A DNA stretch of 64,000 bases from sequence record OQ850289. One strand, written 5' to 3'. Position numbers and translations under genes: made by a program. Shown one piece after another: positions 3,687 to 35,665 of this stretch (within the stretch, counting starts at the first letter, position 1; each line of letters begins with the position of its first letter). The notes under the pieces are model-generated. The model made no database searches. It was not told the DNA's origin and saw only the letters and a list, made by a program, of their open reading frames with translations. This stretch comes from Escherichia phage vB_EcoM_ULIM3.

Positions 3687-3719
3687 CATCAAACAACAAA
3701 TGAGAGAAGAGAGTAAAAT

Positions 3720-5135
3720 ATGAGCGAATTATTTAAACATGCGCACCTTCATGCAGGTCGAACTGAAAATGGTGCTGTAAACCATACTTCATCAATGTCT
3801 GCTCTTGTAGACTTTTACAAAGCTGCTGGTTCAAGCCGTAGCAACGTAGAAATCTTACCAGACCTGTTCTGCAAAGCTTTGCGTGAGGATGTTGATGTCG
3901 CAGTTCGTATTTTGCTTCATATGCGAGATGTACGAGAAGGTATGGGTGAGCGTAAAGCCTTCAGAACTGTTTTGCTTCAAGCGATTGAAGACAAAGTTTT
4001 AGAGCCTACGCAGGTTCTTCGCATTATGGATAAGATTGCAGAACTTGGTCGTTTTGATGACTTCAAAATCTTCGTAGGTACTCGTTTCGAGACAGATGCC
4101 TTCAAACATTTAGAAGCAGCATTACTAGACCCTGCAACAGCAGGTTTGGCGGCTAAGTGGTTACCACGAGTCAAACCACGTCATAAGCAGTTTGTAAAAC
4201 GTTTCTGCAAGTTTGCCAACTTAAGTGAGAAAGAGTACCGCACACTATTGTCTGCACTATCTGATACAGTTGAGCAAAAAATCTCTGCTAATGAGTTTGG
4301 TAAGATTGACTACAGTAAGATTCCTTCACTTGCTGCTGCACGTTACCAAAAACTGTTTAACCGTAAAGATGGAGAACGCTACAAAGCTTACATCGAGTCA
4401 TTATCAAAGGGTGAGGCTAAGATTAATGCTGGTGCTGTTTACCCATACGATGTGATTAAATCTGTTAAGTATGGTAATGCAGATGTTGCTAATGAGCAGT
4501 GGAAAGCACTACCAAACTGGATGGCAGAGGGTGAGAACATTTTGTGTATGACTGATGTCTCAAGCTCAATGTCTTGGGTGAATTTCGGTTCAATCACTGC
4601 TCTTGATATTGGTGTATCTCTTGCACTGTATGTAGCAGAACGCAATACTGGTTGTTTTAAAAATGAGTTAATGGTTTATTCAACAAACCCTCACTTCATC
4701 GAACTGAGTGGTGATTTACGAAACCGTCATCGTCAGGTAATGCGTTATACTGAATATGGTTCAACTAACTTACAAGCAGCTTTTGACCGTATTCTTGAGA
4801 CAGGTAAAAGAAACAACTTGACTCAGAAAGATATGCCAAGTAAGCTTATCATCTTCTCCGATATGGAGTTCAATCAGGTTGATGGAGCTAACGGTCGTAC
4901 AAACTTTGAAGCAATTCAGAGTAAGTACAAAAAAGCTGGATATGAGATGCCACAACTGGTATTCTGGTACTTAGCAAACCGTAATGGTACTTGCGAAGTA
5001 TCTGTTAAGGATAACGGTGTAGCAATGGTATCAGGGTTCTCTCCAGCCACTTTAAAAGCTCTGCTTGGTGGTGAGAAGTTTGACCCAATCAGCGTAATGC
5101 TCAAAGCAGTAATGGTTGACCGTTATATCTGGTAA
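3720..5135 (+). CDS. vWA-domain protein with MIDAS motif; helical N-terminal domain (Ro60/TROVE-like architecture, hypothesis)
   Basis: 471 aa; perfect DxSxS MIDAS (D-V-S-S-S, nt 4549-4563) in C-terminal half; N-terminal RDVREGMGER motif; own promoter at 3651. Confidence 0.65.
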   Translation: MSELFKHAHLHAGRTENGAVNHTSSMSALVDFYKAAGSSRSNVEILPDLFCKALREDVDVAVRILLHMRDVREGMGERKAFRTVLLQAIEDKVLEPTQVLRIMDKIAELGRFDDFKIFVGTRFETDAFKHLEAALLDPATAGLAAKWLPRVKPRHKQFVKRFCKFANLSEKEYRTLLSALSDTVEQKISANEFGKIDYSKIPSLAAARYQKLFNRKDGERYKAYIESLSKGEAKINAGAVYPYDVIKSVKYGNADVANEQWKALPNWMAEGENILCMTDVSSSMSWVNFGSITALDIGVSLALYVAERNTGCFKNELMVYSTNPHFIELSGDLRNRHRQVMRYTEYGSTNLQAAFDRILETGKRNNLTQKDMPSKLIIFSDMEFNQVDGANGRTNFEAIQSKYKKAGYEMPQLVFWYLANRNGTCEVSVKDNGVAMVSGFSPATLKALLGGEKFDPISVMLKAVMVDRYIW

Positions 5136-5145
5136 AAAGTTTTAA

Positions 5146-5182
5146 AAAGGGTATTGACAATGTGTTTAATACCCTTTAATAT
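5146..5182 (+). promoter_or_regulatory. sigma70 promoter within palindrome, upstream of tRNA island
   Basis: TTGACA 5154-5159, exact 17-nt spacer, TAATAT 5177-5182; inverted repeat aagggtatt/aataccctt spans -35 and spacer. Confidence 0.7.
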
Positions 5183-5244
5183 GTTCTACATAGAAACGAA
5201 ATGAGAGCTTTTCTAAGATACTGAAAAATATTTTAAAAAAGTTC

Positions 5245-5278
5245 TTGACAACCACTAAAAAATAATGTTAAAGTGGTT
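5245..5278 (+). promoter_or_regulatory. second promoter-like element upstream of first tRNA
   Basis: TTGACA 5245-5250 preceded by TTTTAAAAAA; inverted repeat aaccact/agtggtt; weak -10. Confidence 0.4.
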
Positions 5279-5300
5279 ACATAGAGTTTGAAAAGTTTAT

Positions 5301-5377
5301 CTCTGTTTAGCTCAGCTTGGTAGAGCGTTCCGTTTGGGGCGGTAAGGCCGGAGGTTCAAGTCCTCCAACAGAGACCA
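5301..5377 (+). tRNA. tRNA-Pro (TGG)
   Basis: acceptor ctctgtt/aacagag (C1-G72, disc A, CCA encoded); anticodon loop tttgggg; T-arm ggagg-ttcaagt-cctcc; one mismatch in anticodon stem. Confidence 0.6.
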
Positions 5378-5384
5378 AATTAAT

Positions 5385-5462
5385 GTTCCAGTAGACAAAA
5401 TGGTAAAGTCACCACTCTTTCAAAGTGGATATTTGAGGGTTCAAATCCCTTCTGGAACGCCA
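5385..5462 (+). tRNA. tRNA-Glu (TTC)
   Basis: acceptor gttccag/ctggaac; anticodon stem ccact/agtgg, loop ctttcaa; T-loop ttcaaat; CCA encoded. Confidence 0.7.
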
Positions 5463-5467
5463 GTTTT

Positions 5468-5544
5468 GACAGAAGACCAATTGCAGCAAACTTAATCTTA
5501 TTCATCTGAAGGTAAATCGGACAAAGAAGAGATTTGGTCTGGTC
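5468..5544 (+). ncRNA. stem-closed element A (CAGAAGACC...GGTCTGG family)
   Basis: 7-bp helix 5474-5480/5534-5540 (AGACCAA:TTGGTCT) closing a 53-nt AT-rich interior; fills the tRNA-sized spacer between two tRNAs. Confidence 0.4.
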
Positions 5545-5553
5545 ATTAAGAAT

Positions 5554-5630
5554 TGCGGGTATAGAGAAAGGGCGTCTCACATGTCTCATTAGCATGGTAT
5601 CGGCAGGTTCGACTCCTGCACCCGCCTCCA
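5554..5630 (+). tRNA. tRNA with CAT anticodon (Met or Ile2)
   Basis: anticodon stem catgt/gcatg, loop ctcatta; T-arm gcagg-ttcgact-cctgc; acceptor 6/7 paired; CCA encoded. Confidence 0.55.
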
Positions 5631-5634
5631 AATT

Positions 5635-5704
5635 TACAGAAGACCGTTTACAGCAAAATTGAATGAAATTTTTAGCGGAAAAAATTGAAAGATACGGTCT
5701 GGTA
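5635..5704 (+). ncRNA. stem-closed element B (CAGAAGACC...GGTCTGG family)
   Basis: 7-bp helix 5641-5647/5694-5700 (AGACCGT:ACGGTCT); first 28 nt identical to element D. Confidence 0.4.
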
Positions 5705-5715
5705 ATACTAAACAT

Positions 5716-5792
5716 GGTTAGGAAGCACATAAGGTATGTGCGGTCGCCTGTTAAGCGAATGGCACAGGGTTCGAATCCCTGACTAACCGCCA
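5716..5792 (+). tRNA. tRNA-Asn (GTT)
   Basis: acceptor ggttagg/actaacc; anticodon loop ctgttaa; T-arm caggg-ttcgaat-ccctg; CCA encoded. Confidence 0.65.
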
Positions 5793-5801
5793 AATTTAAA
5801 T

Positions 5802-5889
5802 GTGTCGTTATCCCGTAGATGGTAGCGGTGGGGACTGTAAATCCCTTGTCATTGAGACTCGGTAGGTTCGACTCCTACACGGCACACCA
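5802..5889 (+). tRNA. tRNA-Tyr (GTA), long variable arm
   Basis: acceptor gtgtcgt/acggcac; anticodon stem gggga/tccct, loop ctgtaaa; ~15-nt variable arm; T-arm gtagg-ttcgact-cctac. Confidence 0.7.
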
Positions 5890-5894
5890 ATAAA

Positions 5895-5971
5895 GGCTAT
5901 GTAGTTTAACTGGAGAAAATACTCCCCTGTCACGGGAGATGATGTGAGTTCAAGTCTCATCGTAGCCGCCA
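5895..5971 (+). tRNA. tRNA-Asp (GTC)
   Basis: acceptor ggctatg/cgtagcc; anticodon stem ctccc/gggag, loop ctgtcac; CCA encoded. Confidence 0.7.
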
Positions 5972-6056
5972 AATTATAATAAGTATTTCAAAATGATGTT
6001 TTGAGAGGGCTATTTAGCCCCTCCCTTAAAGGGTTCTTACGAGTATCCTTTAAAGG

Positions 6057-6134
6057 AGCAGAAGACCAAATTCAGCAAGTTACTTAAAATTTCAAGCCAA
6101 TTTAATTTTGAAAAATTTAAAACTTGGTCTGGCT
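6057..6134 (+). ncRNA. stem-closed element C (CAGAAGACC...GGTCTGG family)
   Basis: 7-bp helix 6063-6069/6124-6130 (AGACCAA:TTGGTCT); interior AT-rich hairpin. Confidence 0.4.
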
Positions 6135-6143
6135 CAACAAATT

Positions 6144-6278
6144 TACAGAAGACCGTTTACAGCAAAACTTAAACAATCTATTTCTCGGTAAAGAAAAGGC
6201 GAAGGTTCGATTCCTTCACTCGGCAGATGTCGAGTTGGTGTAATGGCAGCACTTAAGATGATAAACAACGGTCTGGTA
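6144..6278 (+). ncRNA. stem-closed element D with internal tRNA-like module
   Basis: 8-bp helix 6150-6157/6267-6274 (AGACCGTT:AACGGTCT); interior has T-arm-like gaagg-ttcgatt-ccttc (6201-6217) and D-loop-like agttggtgtaatgg (6231-6246) but no full cloverleaf. Confidence 0.4.
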
Positions 6279-6421
6279 ATTATCTTTGTAGATAAGTTAT
6301 TAAGCTTACCTGTGAGTATGCGACCACAAAGGGTGAAAGGGTAAATTCTAGATTTAAACCCAAAAAGGCACATCGCTACAGACCTTAAGCAAGTCTGGGT
6401 AGCTTATCTACAAAGATAATT
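6278..6421 (+). repeat. 19-bp perfect inverted repeat (6278-6296 / 6403-6421) enclosing 106 nt
   Basis: aattatctttgtagataag and its exact reverse complement; lies between element D and tRNA-Lys. Confidence 0.75.
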
Positions 6422-6425
6422 TAAT

Positions 6426-6501
6426 GGAAGTGTAGCAGAATGGTGATGCGGCAGACTTTTAATCTGACAGGCGATGGGTTCGAATCCCTCCACTTCTACC
6501 A
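6426..6501 (+). tRNA. tRNA-Lys (TTT)
   Basis: acceptor ggaagtg/cacttct; anticodon loop cttttaa; T-loop ttcgaat (T-stem only 3 bp); CCA encoded. Confidence 0.6.
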
Positions 6502-34218: not shown

Positions 34219-35118
34219 TTACTTGCCTACTGACAGAGGTGCTTCAATCTTCCCTGCATGTTGGTAGTTGTTAATACCACCAATAAAGTCACTTGCAGTA
34301 AGGTGTTTTAGGTCACTTAGTGTGTTAAGCTGCACACCAATCTCAAAAGTAGGTGCATGGAACTCTTTATTGTTCATCAGTTCATAAACCTGCTTCATAT
34401 GATTCTGATAAATCTGAGTGTCTCCAAAGACACCTATCAAGTATCGTGGAGTGTATCCAGTCATCTTACAAAGAACTTCTAAGATGAAGCCATAAGACGC
34501 AATATTAAACGGAAGCCCTAAAAAGGTGTCTACAGAACGTTGATACCATTGCAAATCCACTTCACCTTCGTTAGTGATATAAATCTGAAACAGTACATGA
34601 CAAGGTGCTAAAGCCATCGAATTAGCTGCAATATCTGCTGCATTCCAAGCATTAACAAGCATGTAGCGGTCTGTGATATCACCTTTCATCTTCGTTACTA
34701 AGGTTTCTAACTGGTCTACAACACAACCATTATGACCTTCAAAGTTTCTCCACTGAACCCCGTAGATTCTCCCACCTGCATCTTCTAACCAGTCTTGTTC
34801 AGAAGAATAGTTAGAGCTTAACCAGCGTTTAAAATCATCTGACCAGATAGTCCAGCGTTCCCCATCATTTTCACCCCAAGTACGGTAACGGAGTTCACCA
34901 AGTTTATTCTCACCGTTCAGGAACCATAAAGCTTCCCCAATAACTTGCCGTGTAAACACCTGTTTAGATGTTAAGAGTGGGAAACCAGTTCTCATATCAA
35001 AACGAAATTGTGGTGGAGCAAATGCAGAGATAACGTCTCCAGTTCGTGTAGTACGCAGTTCACCAACGGATAGAACATGGTTCAGAATATTTTTGTAACT
35101 TGAATCTGCTTGTGACAT
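34219..35118 (-). CDS. thyA: thymidylate synthase (ThyA family)
   Basis: ALAPCH catalytic-Cys motif, RSVDTFLGLPFNIASY, GDTQIYQNH; collinear with the E. coli ThyA sequence as I recall it. Confidence 0.85.
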   Translation of the reverse strand: MSQADSSYKNILNHVLSVGELRTTRTGDVISAFAPPQFRFDMRTGFPLLTSKQVFTRQVIGEALWFLNGENKLGELRYRTWGENDGERWTIWSDDFKRWLSSNYSSEQDWLEDAGGRIYGVQWRNFEGHNGCVVDQLETLVTKMKGDITDRYMLVNAWNAADIAANSMALAPCHVLFQIYITNEGEVDLQWYQRSVDTFLGLPFNIASYGFILEVLCKMTGYTPRYLIGVFGDTQIYQNHMKQVYELMNNKEFHAPTFEIGVQLNTLSDLKHLTASDFIGGINNYQHAGKIEAPLSVGK

Positions 35119-35119
35119 A

Positions 35120-35665
35120 TCAAAAGTGTCCTTTTACTTGTGGAACATAAATTTCAAAGGTTGCTTTACCATCATCTGAGGGTCTTGACTGCACCTTTGC
35201 AAATACACGGCTATCATACAATTTATCGAAGAAGTTTTCAAAAGGTAAATACACAGTGGCCTCTTCAGTGACTTTATGGAAAACTGTATGGAAAACCACA
35301 CCAGCATACGGCAAAGCATCGACAAGAACACCTGCACCACCAATTACAAAGACATCTTCATCAATAGAGCTGTCAAGATACTTCAAAAATGCTCCAAAGG
35401 ATTCTTTACTAGCCTTAGCATACATTACATCGTCTTTGTCAAAGTCTATACCCAAATATGGAACAGAGTTCGTTAAGACGAGGTTTGTACGTTCTGGTAA
35501 TGGTTTGCTACCCAGAGTCTTAAAAGTTTCATTACCCATGACTACTAAGTTATCTTTAGTGAGTCTCTTAAACTCTTGCATATCCTGTTTATGTCGAGGC
35601 CACGGCATACCAGTTGGAGTACCAAACTCCCCATTTTCACCACTTGCAAAGATTAATTTAATCAT
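35120..35665 (-). CDS. folA: dihydrofolate reductase
   Basis: MIKLIFA...GMPWP N-terminal motif; 181 aa; adjacent to thyA. Confidence 0.8.
   Translation of the reverse strand: MIKLIFASGENGEFGTPTGMPWPRHKQDMQEFKRLTKDNLVVMGNETFKTLGSKPLPERTNLVLTNSVPYLGIDFDKDDVMYAKASKESFGAFLKYLDSSIDEDVFVIGGAGVLVDALPYAGVVFHTVFHKVTEEATVYLPFENFFDKLYDSRVFAKVQSRPSDDGKATFEIYVPQVKGHF

Follow-up and report, generated by a model that had tools for sequence, protein, structure and literature searches.

A probable Y-RNA-type RNA with a circularly permuted tRNA domain in the tRNA operon of a Felix O1-like phage

Introduction

Can a phage tRNA operon encode an RNA that is assembled from tRNA parts without being a tRNA, and that has a Ro60-like protein as its partner? 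The question is raised by the stretch of DNA analysed here, a window of 64,000 nucleotides (nt) from Escherichia phage vB_EcoM_ULIM3 (sequence record OQ850289). The phage is Felix O1-like (Felixounavirus), and positions 3700–6450 are 96–97% identical to many Felixounavirus genomes. ARAGORN locates 26 tRNA genes in the window, on the plus strand between 5301 and 10245. A gap free of tRNA genes separates the end of tRNA-Asp (5971) from the start of tRNA-Lys (6426), and in it lies element D (6143–6279, plus strand), for which an initial annotation made from the letters alone had proposed a Y-RNA-like identity.

We consider it likely that D is a noncoding Y-RNA-type RNA of ~135 nt, a YrlA-like member of a set of four paralogues, A–D, in the phage tRNA operon. 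Its apical domain is a circularly permuted tRNA, in which the anticodon-loop end is open and the acceptor end closed. Across very distant phages, its stalk and a divergent Ro60-like gene are inherited together, sharing a strand and usually lying no more than 1 kb apart. In the window, this gene is the open reading frame (ORF) 3720–5135, and D begins 1008 nt past its stop codon on the same strand, inside the limit of ~4 kb that belongs to the definition of YrlA RNAs.

Fold of element D

Element D is bounded by an outer 4-bp stem (6143–6146/6276–6279), and its minimum free energy (MFE) fold has a z-score of −2.2. Within the outer stem, an asymmetric internal loop with AGA on its 5′ side (6147–6149), the last position of which is a family-conserved A (column 7, 80% A), leads into a conserved 7-bp helix formed by AGACCGU (6150–6156) and ACGGUCU (6268–6274). 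The first two pairs of this helix, A-U and G-C, are near-invariant. D alone has an eighth pair, 6157/6267, and the 8-bp terminal helix first described, AGACCGTT at 6150–6157 paired with AACGGTCT at 6267–6274, is indeed present. Directly after the helix comes an unpaired G (6275) that is 100% invariant in the family (column 222). The sequence CAGCAA (6160–6165) is the signature of the family: its C, G, C, A and A are invariant and its first A is found in 95% of 65 matches, a pattern that MAFFT alignments also return. It is presumed to be a protein-contact loop.

Inside the closing helix, the modules follow in the order variable (V) region, T arm, acceptor-stem mimic (AS), UG connector and D arm. 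In this phage, they are framed by an equivalent of the anticodon stem, CUUAA pairing with UUAAG (6168–6172/6253–6257). The V region (6173–6200) is 28 nt long, ends in a pyrimidine, C6200, and contains a variable-arm hairpin, UUUCU/CGGUAA/AGAAA (6181–6196), seen in both the MFE fold and the RNAalifold consensus. The T arm, GAAGG-UUCGAUU-CCUUC (6201–6217), had been recognised at the outset as gaagg-TTCGATT-ccttc; it is evident in the sequence, the MFE fold and the RNAalifold consensus, and agrees with the tRNA T-loop consensus. The AS, ACUCGGC/AGAU/GUCGAGU (6218–6235), is a closed stem of 7 bp (6218–6224/6229–6235) with one G-U pair. The UG connector and the D arm, GUGU-AAUGGCA-GCAC, together span 6236–6252, the D arm proper occupying 6238–6252 and carrying the GG equivalent to G18/G19. 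The D-loop-like sequence AGTTGGTGTAATGG is present as claimed, at 6233–6246 rather than at 6231–6246. The initial annotation had also stated that no acceptor pairing can be built. This holds around the T arm and D loop, but the 7-bp helix between them had been overlooked. The YrlA-like architecture that it had proposed, an end stem enclosing a tRNA-like domain, is borne out by the order of V, T, AS and D inside the closing helix, with which RNAalifold agrees.

An RNAalifold consensus of eight D orthologues recovers the outer stem, the helix, V, T, AS (with three compensatory positions) and the D arm. Three unrelated AS sequences occur among the Ounavirinae between identical T and D arms, namely ACTCGGC/GTCGAGT, ACACGT/GCGTGT (SUSP2 and KMM2) and ACCCTTC/GAAGGGT (HP1), and all are paired. 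The connector between AS and D arm is UG in D, SUSP2 and KMM2, and UA in HP1, FBKp34, L075, L009, L077 and Samty.

No canonical tRNA is called at D by ARAGORN, with or without introns and also at relaxed thresholds, and the Rfam tRNA model RF00005 gives nothing there at E ≤ 10. The view that D is not a canonical tRNA is thus upheld; neither a normal nor an intron-containing tRNA, which the initial annotation had named as contrary evidence, is found. The tRNA-like character of the domain emerges on re-permutation in silico, in which the AS loop was opened and the ends on the anticodon side were joined by a neutral 7-nt loop before ARAGORN was run. Six of seven modules from different phages were then called as cloverleaf tRNAs, compared with none of the seven in native order. 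The D module of the window was called once it had been re-permuted with its 28-nt V region cut to 22 nt. A lone T-arm-like hairpin is not significant, ~10 being expected per 64 kb in Markov resamples, whereas the full T-AS-D arrangement is expected 0.1 times. Its only other match in the window, 35114–35163, is a weak AT-rich chance match.

These data bear on the idea that D no longer has a function and is a relic in decay, in which half of one tRNA, with the T arm, became fused to the D-arm half of the next, or else that it is a small coding sequence (CDS) on the minus strand (ORF 6143–6373). YrlA-type RNAs have been proposed to descend from dimeric tRNAs (bioRxiv 10.1101/312249), and Chen et al. 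2014 (PMC4201824) warned that tRNA dimers can mimic YrlA; in some records, moreover, this stretch is labelled with small CDSs or with an odd tRNA-Thr of 131 nt. The strands of the AS nevertheless pair with each other, and the orthologues have unrelated yet complementary replacements. Unrelated phage lineages have the same architecture, and each of its stems covaries; ARAGORN with introns finds no tRNA. Because of the covariation, this explanation is largely refuted, and we regard it as scarcely credible. The minus-strand ORF was rejected separately, since indels of 1 and 2 nt among the orthologues break any reading frame. An intron-containing tRNA was likewise rejected on the negative ARAGORN result in the window, despite the annotation of a 131-nt tRNA-Thr in phage REP5.

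D is conserved in ~245 phage records, in which it is unannotated or labelled as a small CDS or an odd tRNA. In REP5 (locus L088, 111–241), the 131-nt 'tRNA-Thr_GGT' runs from element C into the T arm of D, and in phage ESh20 (L086, 117–330), small minus-strand CDSs are annotated over D. Both annotations are likely to be artefacts.

The stalk and its family

The pattern AGAAGACC...GGTCTGG has three further copies near D, against 0.01 expected by chance, and these mark elements A (5467–5545, between tRNA-Glu and tRNA-Met), B (5634–5705, between tRNA-Met and tRNA-Asn) and C (6056–6135, 7 nt upstream of D), all on the plus strand. The tRNAs that flank elements of the array lie 3–10 nt from them. 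A–C are short paralogues consisting of the stalk and a small U-rich/A-rich apical hairpin; D alone carries the permuted tRNA. All four have in common the outer 4-bp stem, which varies in sequence and stays paired (in B, UUAC/GUAA here and UUGC/GCAA in orthologues L001 and L081), the AGA/G internal loop, the helix AGACCnn/nnGGUCU and CAGCAA. As a signature of the wider family, the exact frame AGAAGACC...GGTCT was rejected, being found only in Ounavirinae.

For searches beyond these phages we used covariance models. The first, R1, was built from 19 short elements, all from Gram-negative phages, with the helix as its only structure; D was left out of its seed alignment. R1 and a second model, R2, score D at 42.4 bits (E = 8e-6) and 50.1 bits (E = 1.5e-7), respectively; the corresponding scores are 56.4 and 52.0 bits for A, 62.4 and 59.6 bits for B, and 60.3 and 54.7 bits for C. 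In 971 kb of loci encoding relatives of the ORF 3720–5135 protein, R1 gives 75 matches at E ≤ 1, of which 74 are on the strand of the gene and none is inside it; by distance from the gene, 40 are no more than 300 nt away and 60 no more than 1 kb. The matches reach beyond the training range: same-strand elements flank the gene in the Listeria phage LP-083-2, Staphylococcus phage SEP9, Mycobacterium phage Samty and Campylobacter phage NCTC12673, whose proteins are 29–36% identical. Loci with R1 matches are richer in tRNAs (mean 6.3 versus 0.8).

R2 yields 107 matches at E ≤ 0.1, every one on the gene strand (107/107), in 47 of 75 non-Felix viral loci with one to five copies per locus. Distances place 87 of 103 matches within 1 kb of the gene, 38 being upstream and 65 downstream, and 66 of the 103 are no longer than 90 nt and are devoid of the tRNA-like module. 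Bacterial and archaeal assemblies supplied 80 further loci as an independent set, unused in training; in it, 74/74 matches in 52 loci are on the gene strand, mostly directly upstream of the gene. Over both sets, 181 of 181 R2 matches are on the strand of the DUF2828 gene. Among these additional genomes, a Pacearchaeota metagenome-assembled genome (L104), the complete genome of Clostridiales bacterium CCNA10 (L165) and Dysosmobacter segnis (L168) have the pair of gene and stalk RNA, so that isolate genomes are included.

In an alignment of 103 distinct homologous elements, fitted to the model, 99% of the 717 cells of the 7-bp helix are paired, and 306 changes are double-sided; the fitting inflates this pairing somewhat, though MAFFT alignments give the same pattern. 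Slid registers are 29–44% paired and shuffles 61%. The eighth pair was rejected as a family feature, 42 of 71 sequences being unpaired there. The consensus reads A-[A-G-R-N-N-N-N]-U-U-W-CAGCAA ... A-rich ... [N-N-N-N-Y-C-U]-G, in which the 3′ G is invariant. The stalk thus comprises a 7-bp helix with an A-U/G-C base, a purine-rich 5′ bulge, CAGCAA above the 5′ strand, an A-rich 3′ side and a G after the 3′ strand.

A close parallel to the window is found in the Klebsiella phage FBKp34, which belongs to another subfamily and whose protein is 52% identical. Its gene is followed by a 480-nt gap and then by a tRNA array, and in the gap lie three elements of the same design, with CAGCAA and different helix sequences, the third of which has a T arm, a 7-bp closed stem and a canonical D arm. 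T-AS-D modules within CAGCAA stalks are present in SUSP2, KMM2, HP1, FBKp34, Samty and several metagenomic phages, and every stem differs yet is paired. By a strict T-AS-D descriptor, there are 24 modules on the gene strand as against one on the opposite strand. A loosened regular expression for CAGCAA proved too noisy (121 versus 62 matches by strand) and was dropped in favour of the covariance models.

In other long members, the same CAGCAA stalk bears a second apical module that also recurs, CCUUUCUGGAGGGGAAAG(C/U)AAAAACUCGCC..., also given as CCUUUCUGGAGGGGAAAG...CUCGCC. It occurs at L012 1258–1378, L007 3126–3236, L022 5727–5833, L013 1406–1525, L009 146–286 and L025 5671–5778, often in tandem with a tRNA-like member, and looks like a distinct effector domain. 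Because other long members have this second module, we conclude that an unchanging stalk bears apical modules that can be exchanged, the same logic by which Y RNAs are organised.

Are these elements trans-acting RNAs, or do A–D serve as cis-acting signals, such as processing or punctuation sites of the tRNA operon, terminators or untranslated-region elements through which the Ro60-like gene regulates itself? The elements in the window do lie between tRNAs, at most other loci they border directly on the same-strand gene, up- or downstream of it, and many matches in the independent set have a 5′ leader position. Their position is not fixed, however, as the 38 upstream and 65 downstream matches attest, and two to five tandem copies are frequent. 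In the window, the elements are separated from the gene by two tRNAs, by a 12-bp hairpin directly after the stop codon of ORF 3720–5135 (5146–5177, plus strand) and by two promoter-like sites. The latter are sigma-70-like matches of a consensus scan (5154–5182 and 5245–5274, plus strand) that lie between the ORF and the array of tRNAs and Y-like RNAs; such sites are not more numerous in the region than in shuffles, which makes them weak evidence. Seventeen of 40 R1-matched loci have no tRNA in their flanks, and the elements are therefore not tRNA-operon signals. It is not obvious what a permuted tRNA domain would do in termination or processing, and autoregulation would itself imply that the protein binds the stalk. 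Taken together, we consider a purely cis-acting role unlikely and retain the assignment of A–D as Y-RNA-type RNAs.

Some further observations concern individual members. AS-reduced variants, with 0–3 bp and with T and D arms almost directly joined, occur at L007 3259–3385, L013 1525–1639 and L025 5782–5902, and in some of them CCGCAA replaces CAGCAA. In Samty (L092), the hypothetical CDS gp55 (4062–4256), directly after a gene annotated as 'Ro-like RNA binding protein', overlaps a T-AS-D module (4068–4123) and a stalk match (4157–4224) and is probably a mis-annotated RNA gene. In FBKp34 (L083), UACAGCAAAUA followed by a T-arm-like hairpin lies past the three stalk elements at ~7818–7920, and an annotated 114-nt 'tRNA-Asp' (8003–8116) fits the Rfam tRNA model only with a large insertion. 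LP-083-2 (L093) has three stalk elements (2116–2389) directly upstream of its Ro60-like gene and, 1.3 kb downstream of that gene, a gene for an RtcB-like 'tRNA splicing ligase' (5315–6458), which recalls the Salmonella rsr-yrlBA-rtcBA operon. The RtcB-like neighbour and the tRNA-rich loci point towards repair or surveillance of tRNA or other RNA.

The neighbouring Ro60-like protein

ORF 3720–5135 (plus strand) encodes a protein of 471 residues in which Pfam recognises DUF2828 and DUF7788. An AlphaFold2 model computed with 30 homologues (mean predicted local distance difference test score, pLDDT, 86.8) comprises a helical ring and a vWA domain. The 12 best PDB matches returned by Foldseek are all full-length Ro60 structures (E = 1e-9 to 1e-7, template-modelling (TM) scores 0.44–0.65), including Xenopus Ro60, Deinococcus Rsr and the Ro60 of Thermus phage phiLo (9kop, 9l5y); isolated vWA/MIDAS domains come next. 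The MIDAS-type residues of the DxSxS...T...D pattern, D279, S281, S283, T349 and D381, are invariant in the 30 homologues. Because of the full-length Ro60 fold matches and the invariant MIDAS residues, we conclude that the protein, as modelled, is a divergent Ro60 homologue visible at the fold level only. A candidate for the Ro60-like partner gene that had been expected near D can thus be pointed to.

A related protein has been studied in the Felixounavirus Bas63. A preprint finds its gp130 to be Ro60-like by structure and to counter the ppl defence, and speculates, in one sentence, that some of the Bas63 'tRNAs' might be Y RNAs for this protein (PMC11482910). Synteny suggests that gp130 is the orthologue of the ORF 3720–5135 protein. 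As gp130 rescues T7, which lacks the phage RNAs, the RNAs are unnecessary for the activity against ppl; they may regulate the protein or redirect it.

Another reading is that D is a tRNA-like decoy or substrate whose action does not involve the Ro60-like protein; it might, for instance, soak up a tRNA-targeting nuclease or a modification enzyme of the host, with the stalk serving another partner or only stability. D does sit among tRNA genes, phage tRNAs are believed to counteract defences that target tRNAs (cited in PMC11482910), and gp130 acts against ppl without the RNAs (PMC11482910). It is the stalk, however, and not the tRNA-like module that is the constant feature, all 181 R2 matches being on the gene strand, and the module is missing from most family members, as the 66 of 103 matches of ≤90 nt make plain. 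A decoy unconnected with the protein is, on this evidence, distinctly improbable, and a Y-RNA-type partnership is preferred.

Relationship to YrlA and other RNAs

YrlA RNAs are defined by a 5′ GNCGAAN0-1G motif, by V, T, AS and D stem-loops, and by a same-strand location no more than ~4 kb from a TROVE Ro60 gene (Chen et al. 2014, PMC4201824). An L-shaped tRNA fold, modification by TruB and DusA and physical binding to Ro60 also belong to the description of YrlA. The crystal structure of YrlA is that of a circularly permuted tRNA whose acceptor stem is closed, and a 7-bp AS makes the Mycobacterium smegmatis RNA a substrate of RNase P as well as of the CCA-adding enzyme (bioRxiv 10.1101/312249). 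D resembles YrlA (RF02553; Salmonella, M. smegmatis and TROVE mycobacteriophages) in its closing stem with a presumed Ro60-binding module, in its apical permuted tRNA of V, T, closed AS, 2-nt connector and D, with V ending in a pyrimidine, and in its location on the same strand a few kb from a Ro60-type gene. Its 7-bp AS is as in the M. smegmatis RNase P substrate. It differs in its stalk, AG-helix-CAGCAA...CU-G in place of GNCGAAN0-1G, in its UG rather than UA connector, in its unusually long V arm of 28 nt and in its partner, which is DUF2828/DUF7788 where that of YrlA is Pfam TROVE/vWA_Ro60. Furthermore, it is one of four paralogues that sit within a 26-tRNA array.

The Rfam YrlA model RF02553 has a gathering score of 69 bits. 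Rfam scans over the elements, at gathering thresholds and at E ≤ 10, return nothing besides true tRNAs. The Rfam check proposed at the outset thus fails for D itself and succeeds for sister elements in other phages, which RF02553 matches over its full length: DUF2828-linked members score 39.6 bits in FBKp34, 38.9 and 28.7 bits in L075, 36.7 bits in L077 and 24.7 bits in L009, all below gathering. As a positive control we used mycobacteriophage Bxz1, whose gp220 is TROVE plus vWA_Ro60 in Pfam; RF02553 finds the T-AS-D module directly upstream of gp220 with 32.5 bits (E = 3e-4). The scores of the DUF2828-linked members (range 25–40 bits) equal or exceed this in the best cases, those of FBKp34, L075 and L077. 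R1 and R2 give no match in 28 kb of Bxz1. A candidate YrlA motif in D, GGCGAAGG at 6198, was rejected as coincidental, since it falls at the V/T junction and occurs only in Ounavirinae D orthologues.

Several results count against the identification of D as a Y-RNA-type partner of a Ro60-like protein. RF02553 has no match to D even at E ≤ 10, and the YrlA motif GNCGAAN0-1G is found within the first 35 nt of none of the 65 family elements (0/65). The RNAalifold consensus of the eight D orthologues contains no equivalent of the anticodon stem, and the pairing 6168–6172/6253–6257 is not conserved in SUSP2, KMM2 and HP1. The outer 4-bp stem has no family-wide support: it was rejected as a family feature because the mean best stem is 3.7 bp, as against 3.2 bp in shuffles, and it is consistent only within Ounavirinae. 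About one-third of DUF2828 loci, including those of KVP40 and Aeh1, have no match in the flanks searched; in these two phages, no element lies within 2.5 kb on either side of the gene. On the protein side, Pfam TROVE does not match the ORF 3720–5135 protein, and sequence-level searches of the PDB, with the single sequence or with a 30-member profile, give no significant Ro60 match (profile E ~1). The bond between RNA and protein is suggested by genomic association, and gp130 alone, whether plasmid-expressed or inserted into T7, rescued T7 from ppl, T7 being without these RNAs (PhageMaP preprint, PMC11482910).

Overall, we classify D as a YrlA-like build that departs from YrlA in three of its defining properties (stalk motif, Rfam score and Pfam-TROVE partner), and accordingly as a variant Y-RNA set of the DUF2828 branch.

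Likenesses extend to other systems. A–C consist of the stalk shared with D and a simple hairpin, resembling YrlB and short bacterial Y RNAs and paralleling the YrlA/YrlB pairs beside rsr, but their stalk motif differs and there are three copies instead of one. In Thermus phage phiLo, a Ro60 homologue reported to have the canonical ring architecture is encoded beside the Y-like RNAs Yrl1 and Yrl2 (PMC12135203), and the ORF 3720–5135 protein has this Ro60 among its best structural matches. Yrl1 and Yrl2 differ from D in having been chosen by a CGAA motif and a stem-bulge-stem shape, with no tRNA-like domain reported (PMC12135203). Transfer-messenger RNA (tmRNA) and viral 3′ tRNA-like structures share with D the mimicry of the elbow formed by T arm and D arm; they have a free CCA end and are aminoacylated, whereas in D the acceptor stem is closed by a tetraloop and the anticodon end is open. 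Metazoan Y RNAs, which we take to be Rfam family RF00019, are RNA polymerase III transcripts with a La-binding tail, a conserved bulged helix (GGUCCGA/UUGACU) and no tRNA-like domain. Their modular plan, in which the ring is bound through a terminal helix that has an internal loop or bulge and effectors are recruited by a variable apical module, is the one proposed for D, but there is no similarity at the Rfam level (E ≤ 10) or in sequence, and the stalk sequence differs.

Proposed mechanism and significance

In the mechanism that we propose, the stalk would be the docking site for the ring-shaped Ro60 homologue of ORF 3720–5135, and the apical part an exchangeable effector module, represented in A–C by a plain, YrlB-like hairpin. 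In D, the apical domain is expected to fold into the L-shape of a tRNA and to show the tRNA elbow to factors that recognise tRNAs; candidates are modification enzymes, RNase P, the CCA-adding enzyme, RNA repair enzymes and tRNA-targeting nucleases. A–D are probably freed from a polycistronic tRNA precursor by RNase P and by 3′-end processing of the flanking tRNAs, and the 7-bp AS of D predicts an RNase P cut in the AGAU loop. The RNA may gate or tether the protein, as other Y RNAs do, and in infection would likely, by analogy, couple it to surveillance or repair of tRNA or structured RNA.

A bolder proposal is that CAGCAA-stalk RNAs and DUF2828/DUF7788 proteins constitute a second ancient lineage of Ro60-like ribonucleoproteins with interchangeable effector modules, spread over phages of Gram-negative, Gram-positive and actinobacterial hosts and over bacterial and archaeal assemblies. 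The D-type AS would be cut by RNase P and CCA-tailed as in M. smegmatis YrlA, giving a two-piece, possibly chargeable tRNA mimic on the ring that could sense, decoy or repair damage caused by tRNA-targeting defences. This we hold to be rather unlikely as a whole.

Literature searches (DUF2828; Felixounavirus with Y RNA; phage Ro60 with tRNA-like RNAs) returned only the Bas63 speculation (PMC11482910) and work on TROVE-type systems; in them we did not find the CAGCAA-stalk family described before, and its pairing with a Ro60-like gene recurs widely in phages. DUF2828 and DUF7788, which occur in thousands of phage and bacterial proteins, gain a likely RNA partner, and the Ro60/Y RNA paradigm extends past TROVE-annotated genes. 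The speculation about Y RNAs in Bas63 is now testable, given coordinates, a mutable motif and a covariance model. Y-like RNAs in a tRNA operon fit the proposed origin of YrlA-type RNAs from dimeric tRNAs, and the modular design of stalk and effector, with its second recurrent non-tRNA module, offers a handle on the effector domains of Y RNAs. Annotation can be corrected as well: in hundreds of phage genomes, these RNA genes of ~70–140 nt at present have no annotation or a mistaken one, as small CDSs or odd tRNAs.

Other features of the tRNA array

Within 6602–6906 lies the best promoter match of the region, at 6675–6703 (TTGACA-17-TATAGT, 11/12). After it there are weak, sub-threshold Rfam matches to permuted tmRNA (32.5 bits) and tmRNA (16 bits), and ARAGORN calls no tmRNA there. 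Between D and tRNA-Lys, the 148-nt stretch 6278–6425 adopts a multi-branch fold with a 24-bp closing stem (−47.9 kcal/mol; z-score −6.4), and none of 200 shuffles is equally stable; it has no Rfam match and may be another structured RNA of the array. A cloverleaf-like fold at 7126–7215 has a 9-bp closing stem, a T arm, a 9-nt anticodon-like loop with CCA and an aberrant D region. It is not called by ARAGORN, tRNA-Trp is missing among the 26 called tRNAs, and the element could be a non-canonical tRNA-Trp or a further tRNA mimic.

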